A DNA stretch of 14,727 nucleotides, taken from IMG/VR virus record IMGVR_UViG_2579778539_000002; one strand, written 5' to 3'. A program made the position numbers and the translations under genes. The DNA comes from a virus (taxonomy: Duplodnaviria > Heunggongvirae > Uroviricota > Caudoviricetes). This document shows positions 2,813-9,314 of this stretch, piece after piece (the first letter of the stretch is position 1; each line of letters starts with the position of its first letter). Under the pieces are notes generated by a model. It was given only the letters and a program-made list of their open reading frames with translations, made no database searches and had not been told where the DNA came from.

Positions 2813-3156
2813 CAGCGCGTTATCTCGGAATGAATCGCAGTGATGGCCTGACTGTCACTGACCTTGAGCATATCAGCCAGAGTATCGGCGATATCCTGCG
2901 CACACCGGTCGGCTCACGGGTGATGCGTCGTGATTACGGCTCGTTGCTGGCGTCAATGATTGACCAGCCGCAGACCCCGGCGCTTGAGTTGCAGATTAAG
3001 GTCGCCTGTTACATGGCCGTACTGAAATGGGAACCCCGCGTCACCCTGTCATCCGTCACCACGGCGCGCAGTTTTGACGGGCGAATGACGGTCACGTTAA
3101 CCGGTCAGCACAACGACACCGGCCAGCCACTTTCGTTAACCATCCCTGTGAGTTGA
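2809..3156 (+). CDS. W: Baseplate wedge protein gpW (gp25/GPW family, 115 aa)
   Basis: Length matches P2 gpW. Start overlaps the V stop (ATGA). Synteny V-W-J-I. Confidence 0.8.
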   Translation: MTARYLGMNRSDGLTVTDLEHISQSIGDILRTPVGSRVMRRDYGSLLASMIDQPQTPALELQIKVACYMAVLKWEPRVTLSSVTTARSFDGRMTVTLTGQHNDTGQPLSLTIPVS

Positions 3157-3160
3157 AACC

Positions 3161-4069
3161 ATGCCGATTATCGACCTGAACCAGCTACCCGCACCGGATG
3201 TGGTCGAGGAGCTGGACTTTGAAACCATTCTTGCCGAACGCAAGGCGACACTGATTTCCCTTTACCCGGAAGACCAGCAGGAGGCGGTTGCCCGTACCCT
3301 GACGCTGGAATCCGAGCCTCTCGTCAAACTGCTGGAGGAAAATGCTTATCGTGAGCTTATCTGGCGTCAGCGTGTGAATGAGGCCGCACGGGCGGTAATG
3401 CTGGCCTGTGCCGCCGGTAATGACCTTGATGTGATTGGTGCCAATTACAACACCACGCGCCTGATTATCACCCCGGCAGATGATTCGACTATCCCGCCGA
3501 CACCGGCAGTGATGGAGTCTGACACCGATTATCGTCTGCGTATTCAGCAGGCGTTTGAGGGCTTAAGCGTCGCCGGGTCGGTGGGAGCCTATCAGTATCA
3601 TGGTCGCAGTGCCGACGGGCGTGTCGCGGATATCTCTGTCACCAGTCCGTCTCCGGCCTGCGTCACCATCTCTGTGCTGTCACGTGAAAATAACGGTGTC
3701 GCATCCGAAGACCTGCTGGCCGTGGTGCGTAACGCCCTTAATGGCGAGGACGTCAGGCCGGTGGCCGACCGCGTGACCGTGCAGTCTGCCGCCATCGTTG
3801 AATACCAGATAAACGCCACGCTGTATCTTTACCCTGGTCCCGAAAGCGAACCCATTCGCGCTGCCGCCGTGAAAAAACTGGAAGCGTATATCACGGCACA
3901 GCACCGGCTGGGGCGCGACATCCGTCTGTCTGCCATTTATGCCGCTTTGCATGTGGAAGGCGTGCAGCGTGTCGAACTGACTGCACCTCTGGCTGACATC
4001 GTGCTCAACAATACGCAGGCGTCTTTCTGTACTGAATACCGCGTCGTGACCGGAGGCTCGGATGAGTGA
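3161..4069 (+). CDS. J: Baseplate protein gpJ (302 aa)
   Basis: Length matches P2 gpJ. Synteny. Confidence 0.8.
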   Translation: MPIIDLNQLPAPDVVEELDFETILAERKATLISLYPEDQQEAVARTLTLESEPLVKLLEENAYRELIWRQRVNEAARAVMLACAAGNDLDVIGANYNTTRLIITPADDSTIPPTPAVMESDTDYRLRIQQAFEGLSVAGSVGAYQYHGRSADGRVADISVTSPSPACVTISVLSRENNGVASEDLLAVVRNALNGEDVRPVADRVTVQSAAIVEYQINATLYLYPGPESEPIRAAAVKKLEAYITAQHRLGRDIRLSAIYAALHVEGVQRVELTAPLADIVLNNTQASFCTEYRVVTGGSDE

Positions 4070-4673
4070 TTCGCGACTGCTGCCGACCGGCTCATCACCG
4101 CTTGAAGTCGCCGCCGCAAAAGCCTGTGCGGAAATTGAAAAAACGCCGGTCAGTATTCGTGAGCTGTGGAACCCGGATACCTGTCCGGCAAATCTGCTGC
4201 CGTGGCTGGCGTGGTCATTTTCGGTCGACAGGTGGGATGATAAATGGCCGGAAGCGACCAAACGCGCTGTTATCCGCGATGCGTATTTCATTCACTGCCA
4301 TAAGGGCACTATTGGTGCGATTCGCCGTGTGGTGGAGCCGCTCGGCTATCTGATTGAGGTGAGGGAGTGGTGGCAACTCAACGAGGAGCCGGGGACGTTC
4401 CGTATCGTTGTTGGCGTGCTTGAGCAGGGTATTACCGAGGAAATGTATCAGGAGCTGGAGCGCCTCGTTGCTGATGCAAAACCGGCAAGCCGCCATCTGA
4501 CGGGACTGGCTATCAGTTTAAGTACAACCGGCAACATTTTTGCCGGTGCGGGATGCTATCACGGCGACGCCCTGACGGTTTATCCCTACACCCCGGAGGC
4601 CATTATTGTCGGAGGGGATTATTTCCCGGCCTCGGCCATTCATTTAATTGATAACCTGAGAGTAAACGCATGA
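4062..4673 (+). CDS. I: Baseplate protein gpI (203 aa)
   Basis: Position between J and H; start overlaps the J stop. Longer than the ~176 aa I recall for P2 gpI (unverified). Confidence 0.7.
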   Translation: MSDSRLLPTGSSPLEVAAAKACAEIEKTPVSIRELWNPDTCPANLLPWLAWSFSVDRWDDKWPEATKRAVIRDAYFIHCHKGTIGAIRRVVEPLGYLIEVREWWQLNEEPGTFRIVVGVLEQGITEEMYQELERLVADAKPASRHLTGLAISLSTTGNIFAGAGCYHGDALTVYPYTPEAIIVGGDYFPASAIHLIDNLRVNA

Positions 4674-5992
4674 CAGTGAAATACTACGCCATTCTGACTA
4701 ATCAGGGCGCAGCACGGCTGGCTAACGCGACGATGCTCGGCAGTAAGCTGAATCTGACGCAAATGGCCGTTGGTGATGCGAATGGTGTCTTGCCGACACC
4801 AGACCCGGCACAGACAAAACTGATTAACCAGAAACGCATCGCGCCGCTGAATCTTCTGAGTGTTGACCCGAACAACCAGAGCCAGATTATTGCGGAGCAA
4901 ATCATCCCTGAGAACGAGGGCGGATTCTGGATCCGTGAGATTGGGCTTTATGATGATGAAGGCGTACTCATTGCGGTGGCGAACTGCCCGGAAACGTACA
5001 AACCGCAGTTGCAGGAAGGCAGTGGTCGTACCCAGACTATCCGCATGATTCTGGTTGTCACGAATACCGAAGCTATCACGCTGAAAATCGACCCGTCGGT
5101 GGTACTGGCGACCCGTAAATACGTGGATGATGAAGTCCTGGAATTAAGGCTGTATGTGGATGACCAGATGAGAAACCACATTGCCGCACAGGATCCTCAT
5201 ACACAGTATGCGCAGAAACATAATCCGACATTTACCGGAGAACCAAAAGCGCCGACGCCTGCCGCAGGAAATAACACCACGCGGATTGCGACCACTGCGT
5301 TTGTTCAGGCCGCTATTACCGCTCTGATTAACGGTGCGCCAGCCACGCTGGACACACTGAAAGAAATTGCCGCAGCCATTAACAATGACCCGAAATTCAG
5401 CACCACCATTAACAATGCGCTGTCAGGTAAGCAGCCACTGGATGAGACGCTGACTCATTTGAGTGGAAAGGATGTAGCTGGTCTTCTCGCATACCTTGGT
5501 TTGGGAGAAGGCTCTGCATTACCGGTTGGTGTGCCTGTTCCGTGGCCTTCAGCCACTCCGCCAACAGGCTGGCTGAAATGCAATGGTGCGGCTTTTTCTG
5601 CTGAAGAATACCCGGAACTGGCAAAGGCTTACCCGACCAATAAATTGCCTGATTTACGTGGTGAGTTTATTCGTGGCTGGGATGATGAACGTGGTGTGGA
5701 TAGTGGGCGAACTCTGCTTTCATCGCAAGGAGATGCTATTCGAAACATTACTGGCGGTTTTGGTCAGTTGCGCGTAAACAGCGAAATTAATGCAATTGTC
5801 GATGTTCAAAGTGTGAGTGGGGCTTTTTACGGAGGTACCTCAGTCCGGAATAACATCAATGTGTCTATGACATACGCTAATGACCGAAAAATCCGACAAG
5901 ATGTTCACTTCTCGGCGGCAAATGTTGTTCCAACAGCAAATGAAAATCGTCCACGTAACATCGCCTTTAATTATATTGTGAGGGCTGCATGA
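4670..5992 (+). CDS. H: Tail fibre protein H (440 aa): constant N-terminal part (aa 1 to ~280) fused to the currently expressed variable C-terminal part, with a recombination site inside the gene
   Basis: N-terminus resembles the P2 H / Mu S fibre N-terminal domain. C-terminal part carries a phage tail-collar-like motif (WLKCNGAAFSAEEYPELAKAYP...LPDLRGEFIRGWDDERGVD). Start overlaps the I stop (ATGA). The 26-bp hix-like site at 5484..5509 is in frame. Confidence 0.85.
   Translation: MTVKYYAILTNQGAARLANATMLGSKLNLTQMAVGDANGVLPTPDPAQTKLINQKRIAPLNLLSVDPNNQSQIIAEQIIPENEGGFWIREIGLYDDEGVLIAVANCPETYKPQLQEGSGRTQTIRMILVVTNTEAITLKIDPSVVLATRKYVDDEVLELRLYVDDQMRNHIAAQDPHTQYAQKHNPTFTGEPKAPTPAAGNNTTRIATTAFVQAAITALINGAPATLDTLKEIAAAINNDPKFSTTINNALSGKQPLDETLTHLSGKDVAGLLAYLGLGEGSALPVGVPVPWPSATPPTGWLKCNGAAFSAEEYPELAKAYPTNKLPDLRGEFIRGWDDERGVDSGRTLLSSQGDAIRNITGGFGQLRVNSEINAIVDVQSVSGAFYGGTSVRNNINVSMTYANDRKIRQDVHFSAANVVPTANENRPRNIAFNYIVRAA
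5484..5509. repeat. Left recombination site, hix/gix-like 26-bp element (TTCTCGCATACC-TT-GGTTTGGGAGAA), inside H
   Basis: The 15 bp at 5496..5510 (TTGGTTTGGGAGAAG) are a perfect inverted repeat of 7389..7403. Overall form is two 12-bp half-sites around a central dinucleotide, similar to hixL as recalled (TTCTTGAAAACC-AA-GGTTTTTGATAA). Confidence 0.6.
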
Positions 5993-6594
5993 TGAATAAA
6001 GCTGTATTAAATAGTGAACTCATTGCCATAAAAGCGGGAGACATTATCATTTATAATTATGATGGTGAAACGCGTGAATATATTTCTACATCAACTGAAT
6101 GTCTCGCTGTCGGCGTCGGTATCCCGGCATGTTCTTGTTTAGATGCACCAGTTACACATAAAGCTGGTTATGCAATCTGCCGTTCTGCAGATTTTAACTC
6201 ATGGGAATATGTGCCAGACCATCGCGGTGAAATCATCTATAGCACCGAAACAGGAGAATCGAAAGAAATCACAGCTCCGGGTGATTACCCTGAAAATACA
6301 ACCACTATCGCCCCGTTAACGCCATATGATAAATGGGATGGTGAGAAATGGGTGACGGATACTGAGGCACAGCATAGTGCCGCAGTAGACGCGGCAGAAG
6401 CACAGCGCCAGTCACTGATTGATGCAGCAATGGCTTCCATTAGTCTGATTCAGCTGAAATTACAGGCCGGACGGAAGTTGACGCAGGCAGAAACAACCAG
6501 ACTTAACGCTGTGCTGGATTACATTGACGCGGTGACGGCAACAGATACCAGCACCGCGCCGGATGTCATCTGGCCTGAACTGCCGGAGGCGTAG
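5989..6594 (+). CDS. G: Tail fibre assembly protein G (201 aa), partner of the currently expressed H variable part
   Basis: Start overlaps the H stop (ATGATGA). C-terminus has the tail fibre assembly motif (LDYIDAV...DTSTAPDVIWPELP). Longer than the 175 aa I recall for P2 G. Confidence 0.75.
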   Translation: MMNKAVLNSELIAIKAGDIIIYNYDGETREYISTSTECLAVGVGIPACSCLDAPVTHKAGYAICRSADFNSWEYVPDHRGEIIYSTETGESKEITAPGDYPENTTTIAPLTPYDKWDGEKWVTDTEAQHSAAVDAAEAQRQSLIDAAMASISLIQLKLQAGRKLTQAETTRLNAVLDYIDAVTATDTSTAPDVIWPELPEA

Positions 6595-7018
6595 GCCATT
6601 CAATATCTGGCGCACCGGAAGTATCGACCAGCACCAGTGCGTCCAGATAATCCAGCCACAAATTATATTGCGCCAGTTCGTCATCTTTCAGACGACCAAT
6701 AGCGGCTTTACCGGGCCATTGCTTACTGTTCATGTATTCGTTGGCCTGGTTAATTAGTAGCTGTCTTTCTGATTCAGTAATTTCAATAAGCTCTTCATGC
6801 GTGGGTGGAGGAATATCTGCCCACGCAGGCATCCCATCATCTCCGGCAATACGGATTTTTCCTTGTGGCGGTTCAGCCATAAACTCACTGATAATATTTT
6901 GATTCACCTCCTTTGCATCTGATAAATCCCATCCCTCTGATTTATATTTATCAATCATATCCACAGGGAAAAAAGCATTATGCCTTGCGCTATAAACATA
7001 TTCGTTCATATAAATCAC
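6566..7018 (-). CDS. Alternative tail fibre assembly protein (G', 150 aa) in the silent orientation
   Basis: C-terminus (LWLDYLDALVLVDTSGAPDIEWPTPP) parallels the G C-terminal motif. Sits directly downstream of the alternative fibre segment on the minus strand. Its 3' end overlaps the G 3' end by 29 bp. Confidence 0.65.
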   Translation of the reverse strand: MIYMNEYVYSARHNAFFPVDMIDKYKSEGWDLSDAKEVNQNIISEFMAEPPQGKIRIAGDDGMPAWADIPPPTHEELIEITESERQLLINQANEYMNSKQWPGKAAIGRLKDDELAQYNLWLDYLDALVLVDTSGAPDIEWPTPPAVQAR

Positions 7019-7029
7019 CCTGAATAAAA

Positions 7030-7443
7030 TTACTCACCAACAGCCCACCAACTGTAATTCATCGATACTGTGGAACTGGTTGATGCAGTTCTGTAAGCGG
7101 AATTAAAACCGGTTAATGTTGGGCCTTCTGCAGTCATCATGAACCCTCGCCCAGCACCTAAAGGCGCACCACCATCACCAGAATGAGTAAGCATGGCGCA
7201 GTCCACTTTTTTAGGAAAAGGGATGCTGAATGTAATTCTCATTGTTTGCGTCGATAATGTCGGCGTAACCGCACCACGACCATATTGCAGGATTTTCCCG
7301 TTGGGTAATTTCATCCATCCATCACCACTGGCAAAAGAGGCCATGTCCGGTATCTGATTTTCCCCTGTCCCCACATCCCGTTTTGCCGCTTCTCCCAAAC
7401 CAACGTTTATGAAAATGCAGAGATAACGGGCAACTGGCATCAT
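7030..7443 (-). CDS. Alternative tail fibre variable C-terminal segment (H'v); no promoter of its own expected, would fuse to the H constant part after inversion
   Basis: Minus-strand ORF reads through the right recombination site. Residues GLGE at aa 15-18 are encoded by the inverted repeat in the same frame as GLGE (aa 277-280) of H. The ATG at 7441-7443 lies outside the segment and may not be a real start. Confidence 0.6.
   Translation of the reverse strand: MMPVARYLCIFINVGLGEAAKRDVGTGENQIPDMASFASGDGWMKLPNGKILQYGRGAVTPTLSTQTMRITFSIPFPKKVDCAMLTHSGDGGAPLGAGRGFMMTAEGPTLTGFNSAYRTASTSSTVSMNYSWWAVGE
7390..7415. repeat. Right recombination site, hix/gix-like 26-bp element (TTCTCCCAAACC-AA-CGTTTATGAAAA)
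   Basis: Contains the reverse complement of the 15-bp core in H. Central dinucleotide AA is the complement of TT in the left site, as inversion requires. Lies 55 bp upstream of the invertase start. Confidence 0.6.
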
Positions 7444-7470
7444 CTCCGGTTTTTATTCAGGGGGATGCTC

Positions 7471-8064
7471 ATGCTTATTGGCTATGTACGCGTGTCAACA
7501 AATGACCAGAACACGGAATTGCAGCGTAACGCGCTGGAGTGCGCAGGATGCGAGCGGATTTTTGAGGATAAAATCAGCGGCACGAAGTCCGACCGACCGG
7601 GACTGAAAAAACTGCTCAGAACATTATCAGCAGGTGACACTCTGGTAGTCTGGAAGCTGGACCGGCTGGGGCGTAGTATGCGGCATCTGGTCATTCTGGT
7701 TGAGGAGCTGCGCGAACGCGGCGTTAATTTTCGCAGCCTGACAGATGCTATTGATACCAGCACGCCGATGGGGCGTTTTTTCTTTCATGTGATGGGTGCC
7801 CTGGCTGAAATGGAGCGAGAACTCATTGTCGAGCGGACACGCGCTGGACTGGAAGCGGCCAGAGCCAAAGGGCGTATTGGTGGCAGACGTCCGAAGCTCA
7901 CCGCGAGTGAGTGGGAGCAGGCCGGGCGGTTGCTGGCTGCGGGGGAATCTCGTCAACGTGTGGCGCTGATTTTTGATATTGGCCTGTCCACGCTCTATAA
8001 AAAATTCCCCTCATCAGCGACAAAGAATAAATTGTGTCATCCCTTAGCCAACCGGGACAAATAG
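7471..8064 (+). CDS. Serine site-specific DNA invertase, Gin/Cin/Pin/Hin family (197 aa from ATG 7471; in-frame ATG at 7465 would add 2 aa)
   Basis: N-terminus MLIGYVRVSTNDQNTELQRNAL carries the catalytic-serine motif (Ser9) typical of small serine recombinases and is near-identical to Gin/Pin as recalled. C-terminal HTH-like region (GLSTLYKKFP). AGGGGG Shine-Dalgarno 6 nt before 7471. Confidence 0.9.
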   Translation: MLIGYVRVSTNDQNTELQRNALECAGCERIFEDKISGTKSDRPGLKKLLRTLSAGDTLVVWKLDRLGRSMRHLVILVEELRERGVNFRSLTDAIDTSTPMGRFFFHVMGALAEMERELIVERTRAGLEAARAKGRIGGRRPKLTASEWEQAGRLLAAGESRQRVALIFDIGLSTLYKKFPSSATKNKLCHPLANRDK

Positions 8065-8123
8065 CCTGACATCTCCGGCACAACTGAAAATACCACTCAC
8101 CCATTAACCACGGAGTTAAACGG

Positions 8124-9314
8124 ATGAGTGACTATCATCACGGCGTGCAGGTGCTGGAGATTAACGACGGCACCCGCGTCATTTCCACCGTATCCACTGC
8201 CATTGTCGGCATGGTCTGCACGGCCAGCGATGCGGATGCGGAAACCTTCCCCCTCAATAAACCTGTGCTGATTACCAATGTGCAGAGCGCAATTGCAAAG
8301 GCCGGTAAAAAAGGCACGCTGGCAGCATCGTTGCAGGCCATCGCTGACCAGTCAAAACCGGTCACCGTTGTCGTGCGTGTGGAAGACGGCACCGGCGACG
8401 ACGAAGAAACGAAACTCGCGCAGACCGTTTCCAATATCATCGGCACCACCGACGAAAACGGTCAGTACACCGGACTGAAAGCCCTGCTGGCGGCGGAGTC
8501 GGTTACCGGTGTTAAACCGCGTATTCTTGGTGTGCCGGGACTGGACACCAAAGAGGTGGCGGTTGCACTGGCATCCGTCTGTCAGAAGCTGCGCGCTTTC
8601 GGGTATATCAGCGCATGGGGCTGTAAAACCATTTCCGAGGTGAAAGCCTACCGCCAGAATTTCAGCCAGCGTGAGCTGATGGTCATCTGGCCGGATTTCC
8701 TCGCATGGGATACGGTCACCAGTACCACCGCCACCGCGTATGCCACCGCCCGTGCGCTGGGTCTGCGTGCCAAAATCGACCAGGAGCAGGGCTGGCATAA
8801 AACGCTGTCCAACGTCGGGGTGAACGGTGTTACCGGCATCAGCGCATCTGTATTCTGGGATTTGCAGGAGTCCGGCACCGATGCTGACCTGCTTAACGAG
8901 TCAGGCGTCACAACGCTGATTCGCCGTGACGGTTTCCGCTTCTGGGGTAACCGTACCTGCTCTGATGACCCGCTGTTCCTCTTTGAAAACTACACCCGCA
9001 CCGCGCAGGTGCTGGCCGACACGATGGCTGAGGCGCATATGTGGGCGGTGGACAAGCCTATCACCGCAACGCTGATTCGCGACATCGTTGACGGCATCAA
9101 TGCCAAATTCCGTGAGCTGAAAACAAACGGTTATATCGTGGATGCGACCTGCTGGTTCAGCGAAGAATCCAACGATGCGGAAACCCTTAAGGCCGGAAAA
9201 CTGTATATCGACTACGACTATACCCCGGTGCCTCCTCTTGAAAACCTGACCCTGCGCCAGCGTATTACCGATAAATACCTGGCAAATCTGGTCACCTCGG
9301 TTAACAGCAATTAA
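8124..9314 (+). CDS. FI: Contractile tail sheath protein FI (396 aa)
   Basis: Length matches P2 FI. GGAG RBS. Followed by the tube gene. Confidence 0.9.
   Translation: MSDYHHGVQVLEINDGTRVISTVSTAIVGMVCTASDADAETFPLNKPVLITNVQSAIAKAGKKGTLAASLQAIADQSKPVTVVVRVEDGTGDDEETKLAQTVSNIIGTTDENGQYTGLKALLAAESVTGVKPRILGVPGLDTKEVAVALASVCQKLRAFGYISAWGCKTISEVKAYRQNFSQRELMVIWPDFLAWDTVTSTTATAYATARALGLRAKIDQEQGWHKTLSNVGVNGVTGISASVFWDLQESGTDADLLNESGVTTLIRRDGFRFWGNRTCSDDPLFLFENYTRTAQVLADTMAEAHMWAVDKPITATLIRDIVDGINAKFRELKTNGYIVDATCWFSEESNDAETLKAGKLYIDYDYTPVPPLENLTLRQRITDKYLANLVTSVNSN

Follow-up and report, generated by a model that had tools for sequence, protein, structure and literature searches.

The minus-strand open reading frame (ORF) at positions 7030 to 7443 can securely be read as a silent cassette, namely the alternative end of a tail fibre stored within a Gin/Pin-type invertible segment of ~1.9 kb. 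The ATG with which this frame opens just outside the segment is, judging from sequence comparison, probably the reverse complement of the -10 hexamer of the invertase promoter, placed at a fixed spacing from the crossover site. The identity of the cassette, its sites, the fusion products, the natural occurrence of both orientations and the pattern of conservation can be read directly from the compared DNA; we infer the promoter assignment, its autoregulation and the absence of leader translation. The locus, its flipped form, the annotation of the ORF and the idea of a free protein are all already present in databases or literature, and nothing reported here is new in kind.

The window, i.e., the whole analyzed stretch of 14,727 nt (14.7 kb), corresponds to the tail module of an E. 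coli prophage of the P2-like (Peduovirus) type. Its ORFs follow the P2 order with the baseplate genes V-W-J-I, fibre gene H, chaperone, sheath FI, tube FII and tape measure, backed by the Pfam domains Tail_P2_I, Phage_tail_fib and sheath. The region 4600-8200 shares 99.5% identity with E. coli 65COLEC and ~95% with P2-like prophages of O157:H7, and the locus is collinear with phage pro483 and the annotation of NC_041848 (Table 1). With the shared GLGE motif included, the constant part of H extends to codon 280, and without it to codon 276 at the crossover core (5495-5497). The active variable end (5498-5992) carries the Collar domain. The two chaperone genes converge in the middle of the segment with an overlap of 29 nt. 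The start of the invertase at 7471 is preceded by a Shine-Dalgarno (SD) sequence GGGGGA 6 nt upstream, the start at 7465 in the ORF list being two codons too early, and the protein shares 80% identity with Mu Gin and 87% with PinE.

Table 1. Positions of the genes, crossover sites and predicted or candidate elements of the fibre locus in the window.
Feature	Position	Strand	Remarks
P2 tail protein I	4062-4673	+	
Tail-fibre gene H, current form, 440 aa	4670..5992	+	Pfam Phage_tail_fib 1-150, Collar 287-334; phrog_327; from translation
Left 26-bp crossover site, TTCTCGCATACC-TT-GGTTTGGGAGAA	5484-5509	.	Within H codons 272-280; inverted repeat
Tail-fibre assembly chaperone of the active end	5989..6594	+	Pfam Caudo_TAP E=1.8e-32; PGAP start 5992; tfaE in NZ_CP070914
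Tail-fibre assembly chaperone of the silent end (tfa')	6566..7009	-	Pfam Caudo_TAP E=2.1e-30; PGAP CDS in L001 2467-2910
Silent fibre end, 119 residues after GLGE, gp53-like C-terminal knob	7030..7401	-	Pfam Gp53-like_C; in-silico flip
Right 26-bp crossover site, TTCTCCCAAACC-AA-CGTTTATGAAAA	7390-7415	.	Conserved in 100 related loci
Leader codons 1-13, MMPVARYLCIFIN	7404..7443	-	Outside the invertible segment
Predicted invertase promoter	7415..7443	+	Weak -35-like ATGCAG 7415-7420; extended -10 TGGCATCAT 7435-7443
Candidate antisense sigma-70-like site	7471..7498	-	TTGACA (7498-7493), 16 nt, AAGCAT (7476-7471)
Serine DNA invertase, 197 aa, MLIGYVRVST...	7471..8064	+	Pfam Resolvase E=8e-53, HTH_7 E=1e-12; phrog_125; PGAP start
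Candidate Fis-binding enhancer region inside the invertase gene	7564..7628	.	Fis-like 15-mers centred 7571 (+101), 7621 (+151)

An invertase with Resolvase and HTH domains is located beside the segment, which is bounded by two inverted 26-bp imperfect palindromes with a 2-bp core. Both are read in frame within the fibre gene, giving one constant N-terminal part, two ends, and a chaperone for each of them. The two sites are embedded in a 27-nt inverted repeat (5484-5510 and 7389-7415) and have identical inner half-sites with the cores TT and AA, the inner half-site GGTTTGGGAGAA occurring exactly twice in the window. They contain the repeat TTGGTTTGGGAGAAGG of the e14 P segment as quoted in PMC12529663. 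Inversion of 5498-7401 in silico at the 2-bp cores 5496-5497 and 7402-7403 kept the frame and resulted in an H' of exactly 399 aa (280 + 119), in agreement with the approximate length given in an earlier note on this DNA. The same operation moved the displaced collar-type end behind the MMPVARYLCIFINVGLGE leader, again in frame and as anticipated in that note, to form an ORF of 178 aa.

Both products have natural examples. Phage pro483 (KR073661, Peduovirus), a prophage of the same type with 96-97% DNA identity along the segment, had the flipped state when sequenced. The fibre pro483_31 (399 aa) of this phage and the predicted H' share 99% identity over the full length, and pro483_34 represents the displaced end behind the same leader; the collar-type end of pro483 differs in being only ~60% identical to the active end of the window. 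A further natural example is stfE of K-12. Among 5,426 complete E. coli genomes, the right junction of the window was found in 284 and the flipped junction in 974 when a coverage of at least 80% was required, the flipped junction being present at 100% identity in E. coli 98-3133. Since both orientations exist in nature, the segment would be a switch of known kind that is active or was so until recently. In EPEC, sequencing has shown the fibre loci of P2-like prophages to be phase-variable (Goldberg et al. 2014, PMC4272514).

The minus-strand ORF comprises 137 codons and represents a tail-fibre C-terminal cassette with matches to several PHROG tail-fibre families. Its residues 45-136 match Pfam PF21882 Gp53-like_C (E=2.7e-13, 50.7 bits vs. 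a gathering cut-off of 24.9). Both the coordinates and the assignment as silent alternative fibre end in the earlier note are correct. A search of the ORF against sequences of solved structures returned a weak match to the short tail fibre gp92 (9zd7, E=0.007). Structure prediction of the 136-aa product was uninformative (mean pLDDT 37, pTM 0.23), the underlying alignment of 14 sequences being too shallow because all listed homologues are >88% identical. An end 98% identical to that of this ORF also occurs joined to e14-type StfP N-termini (220 aa) and in no fewer than three further N-terminal contexts, the joint always being NLGLGE. PGAP calls the ORF 7030-7443 a CDS, and the 136-aa leader form constitutes an annotated 90% cluster with 996 member sequences. 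According to the arrangement described above, inversion would be required for the silent end to be expressed, and then as part of H'.

The first start codon of the frame, ATG 7441-7443, indeed lies between the right site and the invertase gene, where the earlier note had placed it, 28 nt before the invertase start. The additional statements that it is the only ATG and that the segment contains no start codon have to be corrected. A second ATG (7438-7440) directly adjoins the first, likewise outside the right site, and the frame contains seven further ATGs (codons 34, 44, 68, 84, 102, 103, and 128), two GTGs (codons 24 and 80) and one TTG (codon 16, inside the crossover site). Upstream, the frame is closed by an in-frame TAA (7453-7455), with 16 codons between the crossover core and this stop. 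Internal starts were used by annotators of relatives, e.g., M34 for NC_041848 gp37 (104 aa) and M44 for phrog_4890, while LLS gene 23 was annotated from TTG and Mu Mup52 from GTG.

The region between crossover site and invertase was compared across 79 viral contigs and 80 genome loci with invertase relatives, complemented by Mu, e14, D6, LLS, mEpX1, and a Yersinia phage. The Gin/Pin group was defined by an invertase of ~80% identity or more and a site on its 5' side. All loci of this group show one architecture with an interval of 53-55 nt, in which the outer half-site is followed by A-T-G (7415-7417), a variable stretch of a fixed length of 19 nt, TGGCAT(C/G)AT, a short G+C-rich stretch, a T run, and the SD sequence of the invertase. 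A comparison of 38 distinct site-to-box sequences showed conservation of the outer half-site, the A-T-G at 7415-7417 and TGGCATCAT, these blocks being separated by a spacer of variable sequence and fixed length. TGGCATCAT has the form of an extended -10 motif (TGn + cATcAT, in which -11 is A and -7 is T) and is situated 27 nt before 7471; its region is the sole conserved sigma-70-like element in the site-to-invertase interval. Throughout the Gin/Pin group, Mu and e14 included, 25-27 nt separate the -10 box from the invertase start. More broadly, 12 of 17 representative lineages, which are not fully independent of each other, carry an extended -10 at 25-43 nt before the invertase start vs. 2.2 expected from shuffles.

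On the upstream side of the predicted promoter, the -35-like ATGCAG abuts the crossover site and is followed by a variable spacer of 17 nt (TG included) before the -10 hexamer. The -35 matches at 2/6 positions and the plus-strand promoter attains a moderate PWM score of 4.6. The extended -10 is retained in five lineages (L101, L103, L104, L109, and L110) in which there is no ATG or the frame is closed. The ATG-less -10 hexamers in such lineages are CACACT, CACAAT, and AAAAAT, and in other lineages the frame is closed by a TAA in the outer half-site. In a Salmonella locus (L097), TGTCATCAT is kept 24 nt before the invertase, without an adjoining fibre ORF. The invertase needs a promoter of its own, because everything upstream of it is located on the opposite strand. 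No usable result on a mapped promoter of gin, pin, or hin was obtained from the literature, and the SMRT-Cappable-seq data contain no entry for K-12 pinE/stfE transcription starts.

Based on these data, a mechanism for the locus can be proposed. The serine invertase would exchange DNA at the 2-bp cores of the two 26-bp sites, and transcription as well as translation would start solely in the constant part of H, from 4670, so that the end facing H would become the receptor-binding tip of the virion together with its own chaperone. The silent end is open across the right site because this site is a near-palindrome read in frame, leader codons 9-13 being the reverse complement of the outer half-site. 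The frame extends further to ATGATG (7438-7443), leader codons 1-2, because this hexamer is the reverse complement of the CATCAT within TGGCATCAT. The in-frame ATG recurs in Mu (gin) and e14 (pinE) because the -10 box and its spacing to the site are conserved there. The constant distance between promoter and crossover site would probably allow invertase bound at the site to cover the weak -35. Accordingly placed, the outside ATG would be a by-product of promoter geometry rather than a dedicated start, and little or no free receptor-binding domain would be made from it.

Two other elements of the region were considered as candidates and dropped. A terminator-like hairpin at 7432-7451 (+) is unsupported, with no conserved pair in an RNAalifold analysis of eight diverse relatives, and the 12-nt direct repeat CATCATCTCCGG (6835 and 7438) is at chance level for the 4.5-kb region. 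Inside the invertase gene, the Fis-like 15-mer at +101 is a loose and weak pattern match that occupies the same position in Mu gin and e14 pinE; Fis sites inside the gin coding sequence have been reported (PMC3378877).

Among the known systems, the G segment of Mu (S/U, S'/U', gin) shares the serine invertase directly right of the segment and transcribed away from it, as well as 26-bp sites inside a fibre gene with a constant N-terminal part and two ends, each with a chaperone. The silent S' frame of Mu also passes the G boundary, RefSeq Mup52 being annotated 28 nt beyond it. Furthermore, TGGCATGAT stands at the same distance from gixR and gin as the box of the window, and Mu therefore likewise has an in-frame ATGCCA. 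Mu differs in its invertase (~80% identical), its gix site (TTCCTGTAAACC-GA-GGTTTTGGATAA), its much longer fibre ends, and its nature as a transposable myovirus that is not P2-like; in addition, it has neither the SD-like GGAG nor the antisense TTGACA-16-AAGCAT. The C segment of P1/D6 (cin, cix) employs an invertase of the same family with 77% identity and the same logic of alternative ends. In D6, however, it is the 3' end and not the 5' end of cin that abuts the annotated cixL, so the overlap of promoter and ATG does not apply to this phage.

A further comparison is provided by the P segment of E. coli K-12 e14 (stfP, tfaP, tfaE, stfE, and pinE). Inner half-site and core are identical to those of the window (TTGGTTTGGGAGAAGG), the invertase is 87% identical, and upstream of pinE the site is followed by AAAATG and TGGCATCAT as in the window. 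The leaders are homologous (e14 MPFACYFFIFINVGLGE vs. window MMPVARYLCIFINVGLGE), both systems combine one collar-type with one gp53-like end, and stfE (b1157), an ORF of the same type, likewise begins outside the segment with MPFACYFFIFINVGLGE. In contrast to the full P2-type tail module of the window, e14 represents a defective remnant whose fibre N-terminus is truncated. The collar end is silent in the K-12 reference orientation, whereas the gp53-like end is silent in the window, and the gp53-like end of K-12 StfP cannot be aligned with that of the window beyond the junction, although other e14 variants carry the latter. Chromosomal inversion of the e14 P segment was reported to render K-12 resistant to T2 (Kirigo et al. 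2025, PMC12529663). The resistance was attributed to StfE2, described as the beginning of stfE joined to the end of stfP and reported to reduce T2 adsorption (PMC12529663). We reconstructed StfE2 as a protein of 125 aa with Gp53-like_C at 47-125, as stated in PMC12529663, and this match implies that StfE2 starts at the outside ATG and is the counterpart of the ORF in the window. The latter shares the layout of StfE2, with an ATG between crossover site and invertase gene and a frame continuing into a gp53-like end. In PMC12529663, StfE2 was expressed from pCA24N PT5-lac, and for the native gene, evidence on promoter, start codon, transcript, or protein is absent from this paper.

As an alternative, the leader ATG may be a genuine native start, by which whichever end is off the virion would be made as a free receptor-binding protein of the StfE2 type (137 or 178 aa). 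Such a protein could bind the cell-surface receptor and thereby exclude other phages or alter adsorption. We regard this reading as unlikely. In its favour, an in-frame ATG is found at the same distance from the site in Mu, e14, P2-like and other Gin/Pin loci and is kept in nearly every member of the group; the ATG is, however, fully accounted for by the -10 box. Plasmid-made StfE2 lowered T2 adsorption to 3-12% and the chromosomal inversion alone sufficed for T2 resistance (PMC12529663), but the plasmid construct did not draw on native signals. In addition, a pinE-linked copy of the window junction exists at 99.7% identity, and e14-type StfP proteins carry the silent end of the window at 98% identity, so that these e14 variants would make a near-identical 136-aa ORF after inversion. 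Just upstream of the ATG there is a GGAG in the window, or AGGA in the e14 type, yet its spacing is poor, with 0 nt to the first and 3 nt to the second ATG compared with 5-8 nt for the genes of the window, and no SD-like sequence was found at the equivalent position in Mu, L099, and L095. Regarding transcription, the candidate antisense site scores 8.8 in the PWM, the best value within 7300-7800 and in the top 0.1% of the window, and its predicted start near 7464 would be located ~21 nt upstream of ATG 7443. Against its role as a promoter, this site coincides with constrained codons of the invertase (M-L and V-S-T), its TCAACA is kept in enterobacterial relatives irrespective of the presence of a leader, and Mu has GTGCTG instead of the antisense -10 part. 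The earlier note had named a region empty of transcription and translation signals upstream of the ATG, along with missing leader peptides, as refuting translation of the leader. The region is empty as far as the consensus promoter scan of minus-strand 6900-8300 is concerned, which found none, but not with respect to the TTGACA site from the PWM and the GGAG. The leader frame itself is open in 37 of 38 distinct sequences, compared with 33 and 23 sequences with stops in the other two frames. We rejected this openness as a sign of coding, the stops in the other frames being two or three fixed motifs; only approximately five independent spacer lineages exist, and the single observed stop, an in-frame TAA in L022, fits the neutral expectation. 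A codon-position signature is missing, with extra alleles in the variable stretch (leader codons 3-9) distributed 14/15/12 over codon positions 1/2/3 and hence without an excess at the third position, and residues change non-conservatively (V/L/F/S, A/T/S/N, R/C/H, Y/N, and L/F/R). Moreover, a 16-bp insertion breaks the leader frame in the L003 / NC_041848 type, and a stop at the edge of the site closes it in most relatives with an invertase identity of 77% or less. A conserved export signal was rejected as well, since the hydrophobicity of the leader is as low as 0.5 in Mu and as high as 2.2 in e14, whose leader also lacks a charged n-region. Fibre tips normally need trimerisation and their own chaperone, which also speaks against a free product. 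Taken together, the sequence evidence leans against a dedicated start at the leader ATG. Native production of a free receptor-binding protein is improbable in view of the unsupportive sequence signals, and the probability it retains derives mainly from the findings reported for e14 and from the antisense promoter candidate.

Two further explanations dispense with either the promoter or the outside start. The outside ATG might be pure coincidence, a short open stretch after a near-palindromic site without any link to a promoter. A run of 16 random codons contains one or more ATGs with a probability of ~22%, and gene finders choose other starts in relatives (the GTG of Mup52, the TTG of LLS, internal ATGs). 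The ATG is, however, part of a strictly conserved 9-nt block at a fixed distance to both the site and the invertase start, surrounded by spacers that are otherwise unalignable (window type, L066, L095, L099, and Mu). This conservation across unalignable spacers implies some constraint, be it by promoter or start codon, and makes coincidence very unlikely. Alternatively, any free product might originate from an internal start (e.g., M34, M44, or M102/103) instead of the outside ATG, an explanation we consider highly improbable. It can draw on the seven in-frame ATGs inside the segment, on an SD-like GAGGG at 4-7 nt from M102/M103 (dG -8.0), and on the annotation of phrog_4890 and NC_041848 gp37 from M44 and M34. 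Nonetheless, it would require the same unproven minus-strand transcription; the product from M102/103 would have ~35 residues and be shorter than the gp53-like domain, the SDs of M34 and M44 are weak or mis-spaced, and the annotations are gene-finder output rather than expression evidence. A combination of promoter and start codon is conceivable, too. The in-frame ATG with its identical spacing in Mu, e14, and P2-like elements may be a weakly used start, and every Gin/Pin switch would then yield a free off-virion tip in the lysogen that occupies a surface receptor and alters the susceptibility to other phages, in line with the claim for StfE2 of e14; we consider this doubtful and rather improbable. 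If true, the same 9 bp would act on one strand as the -10 of the invertase and on the opposite strand as start codon, tying the expression of the invertase and that of the free tip together.

Returning to the preferred reading of the outside ATG as a probable by-product of the invertase promoter, the locus is a textbook example of a host-range switch, and its sequence is already available in RefSeq (99.5% identity) and in the isolated phage pro483. CDSs annotated as "gp53-like domain-containing protein" or "phage tail protein" beside such invertases are silent cassettes. The start assigned to them is most likely due to the invertase promoter, and they should therefore not be counted as independent proteins without evidence. 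The claim of an anti-phage function of StfE2 rests on plasmid expression, and the present analysis sorts the native signals into existing and missing ones. If native expression proved true, invertible fibre segments would have to be credited with a second function on the side of the lysogen. The free product and the fibre can be told apart at the peptide level: YLCIFINVGLGEAAK is a leader-specific tryptic peptide unique to the free product, and the junction peptide of H' differs from it.

The gp53-like fibre end of the window was found, at 95–99% identity, attached to no fewer than five N-terminal contexts unrelated to one another in matching proteins (P0040, P0082, P0021, P0059, P0052, and P0055), i.e., the e14 StfP-type (220 aa), 236-aa, 213-aa, and 143-aa forms as well as a P2 H fragment. 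The junction with every one of these contexts is NLGLGE, the motif encoded by the crossover site. Since the join falls invariably at this motif, the crossover site serves as a module junction across different prophage families.

Coordinates of the features discussed
Feature	Sequence	Position	Strand
Rearranged right crossover site	NC_041848 (L003)	2985-3035	
Locus with possible cargo	CP191473 (L097)	1658-2430	
Overlap of chaperone gene 3' ends	window	6566-6594	
Repeat copy upstream of tfa'	window	7014-7029	minus
Repeat copy upstream of invertase	window	7451-7466	plus
Invertase ATG, mechanical ORF list	window	7465	plus
Invertase start, assigned	window	7471	plus
Candidate antisense promoter-like site	window	7471-7498	minus

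Rearranged right crossover sites were detected in two relatives. In NC_041848, the normal outer half is preceded by an insert (GGTATGCGAGAAGACC) consisting of a complete left-site outer half plus 4 nt, which puts the leader out of frame; the invertase is annotated there at 165 aa only. In the second related invertase locus (L036), the left outer half stands in place of the right one, resulting in a leader that reads ...CILAYLGLGE. Both sites look like products of gene conversion or aberrant exchange between left and right sites. A further rearrangement of the right boundary is suggested by P0011, a 137-aa variant starting with MKSDGTYFCIFINVGLGE, as this protein is a hybrid whose first residues are e14 StfP-like (DIKSDGT) and are followed by YFCIFINV of the leader. 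Within locus L097 of Salmonella enterica, approximately 1 kb containing two plus-strand ORFs (152 and 106 aa) separates the gp53-like fibre cassette from the invertase gene; this stretch may have been inserted as cargo where the segment ends.

The mechanical ORF list opens the invertase with MLMLIGY...; homologues, PGAP annotation, and Shine-Dalgarno spacing assign the start to MLIGYVRVST. Antisense to codons 1-10 lies a perfect TTGACA followed by 16 nt and AAGCAT, the top-scoring sigma-70-like PWM match on both strands of 7300-7800. The predicted start of this candidate site would face the inferred invertase promoter, and the respective transcripts would overlap by ~14 nt.

Upstream of both the invertase and the tfa' start, we found TTTTATTCAGGG(T/G)GAT, showing that the translation-initiation regions of the two genes are near copies. 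The copies form a 16-nt inverted repeat identical at 15 of 16 positions, with a roughly estimated chance expectation of ~0.1 such pairs in 4.5 kb, and may be the trace of an old recombination joint. Mid-segment, the two chaperone genes converge and share 29 nt at their 3' ends.
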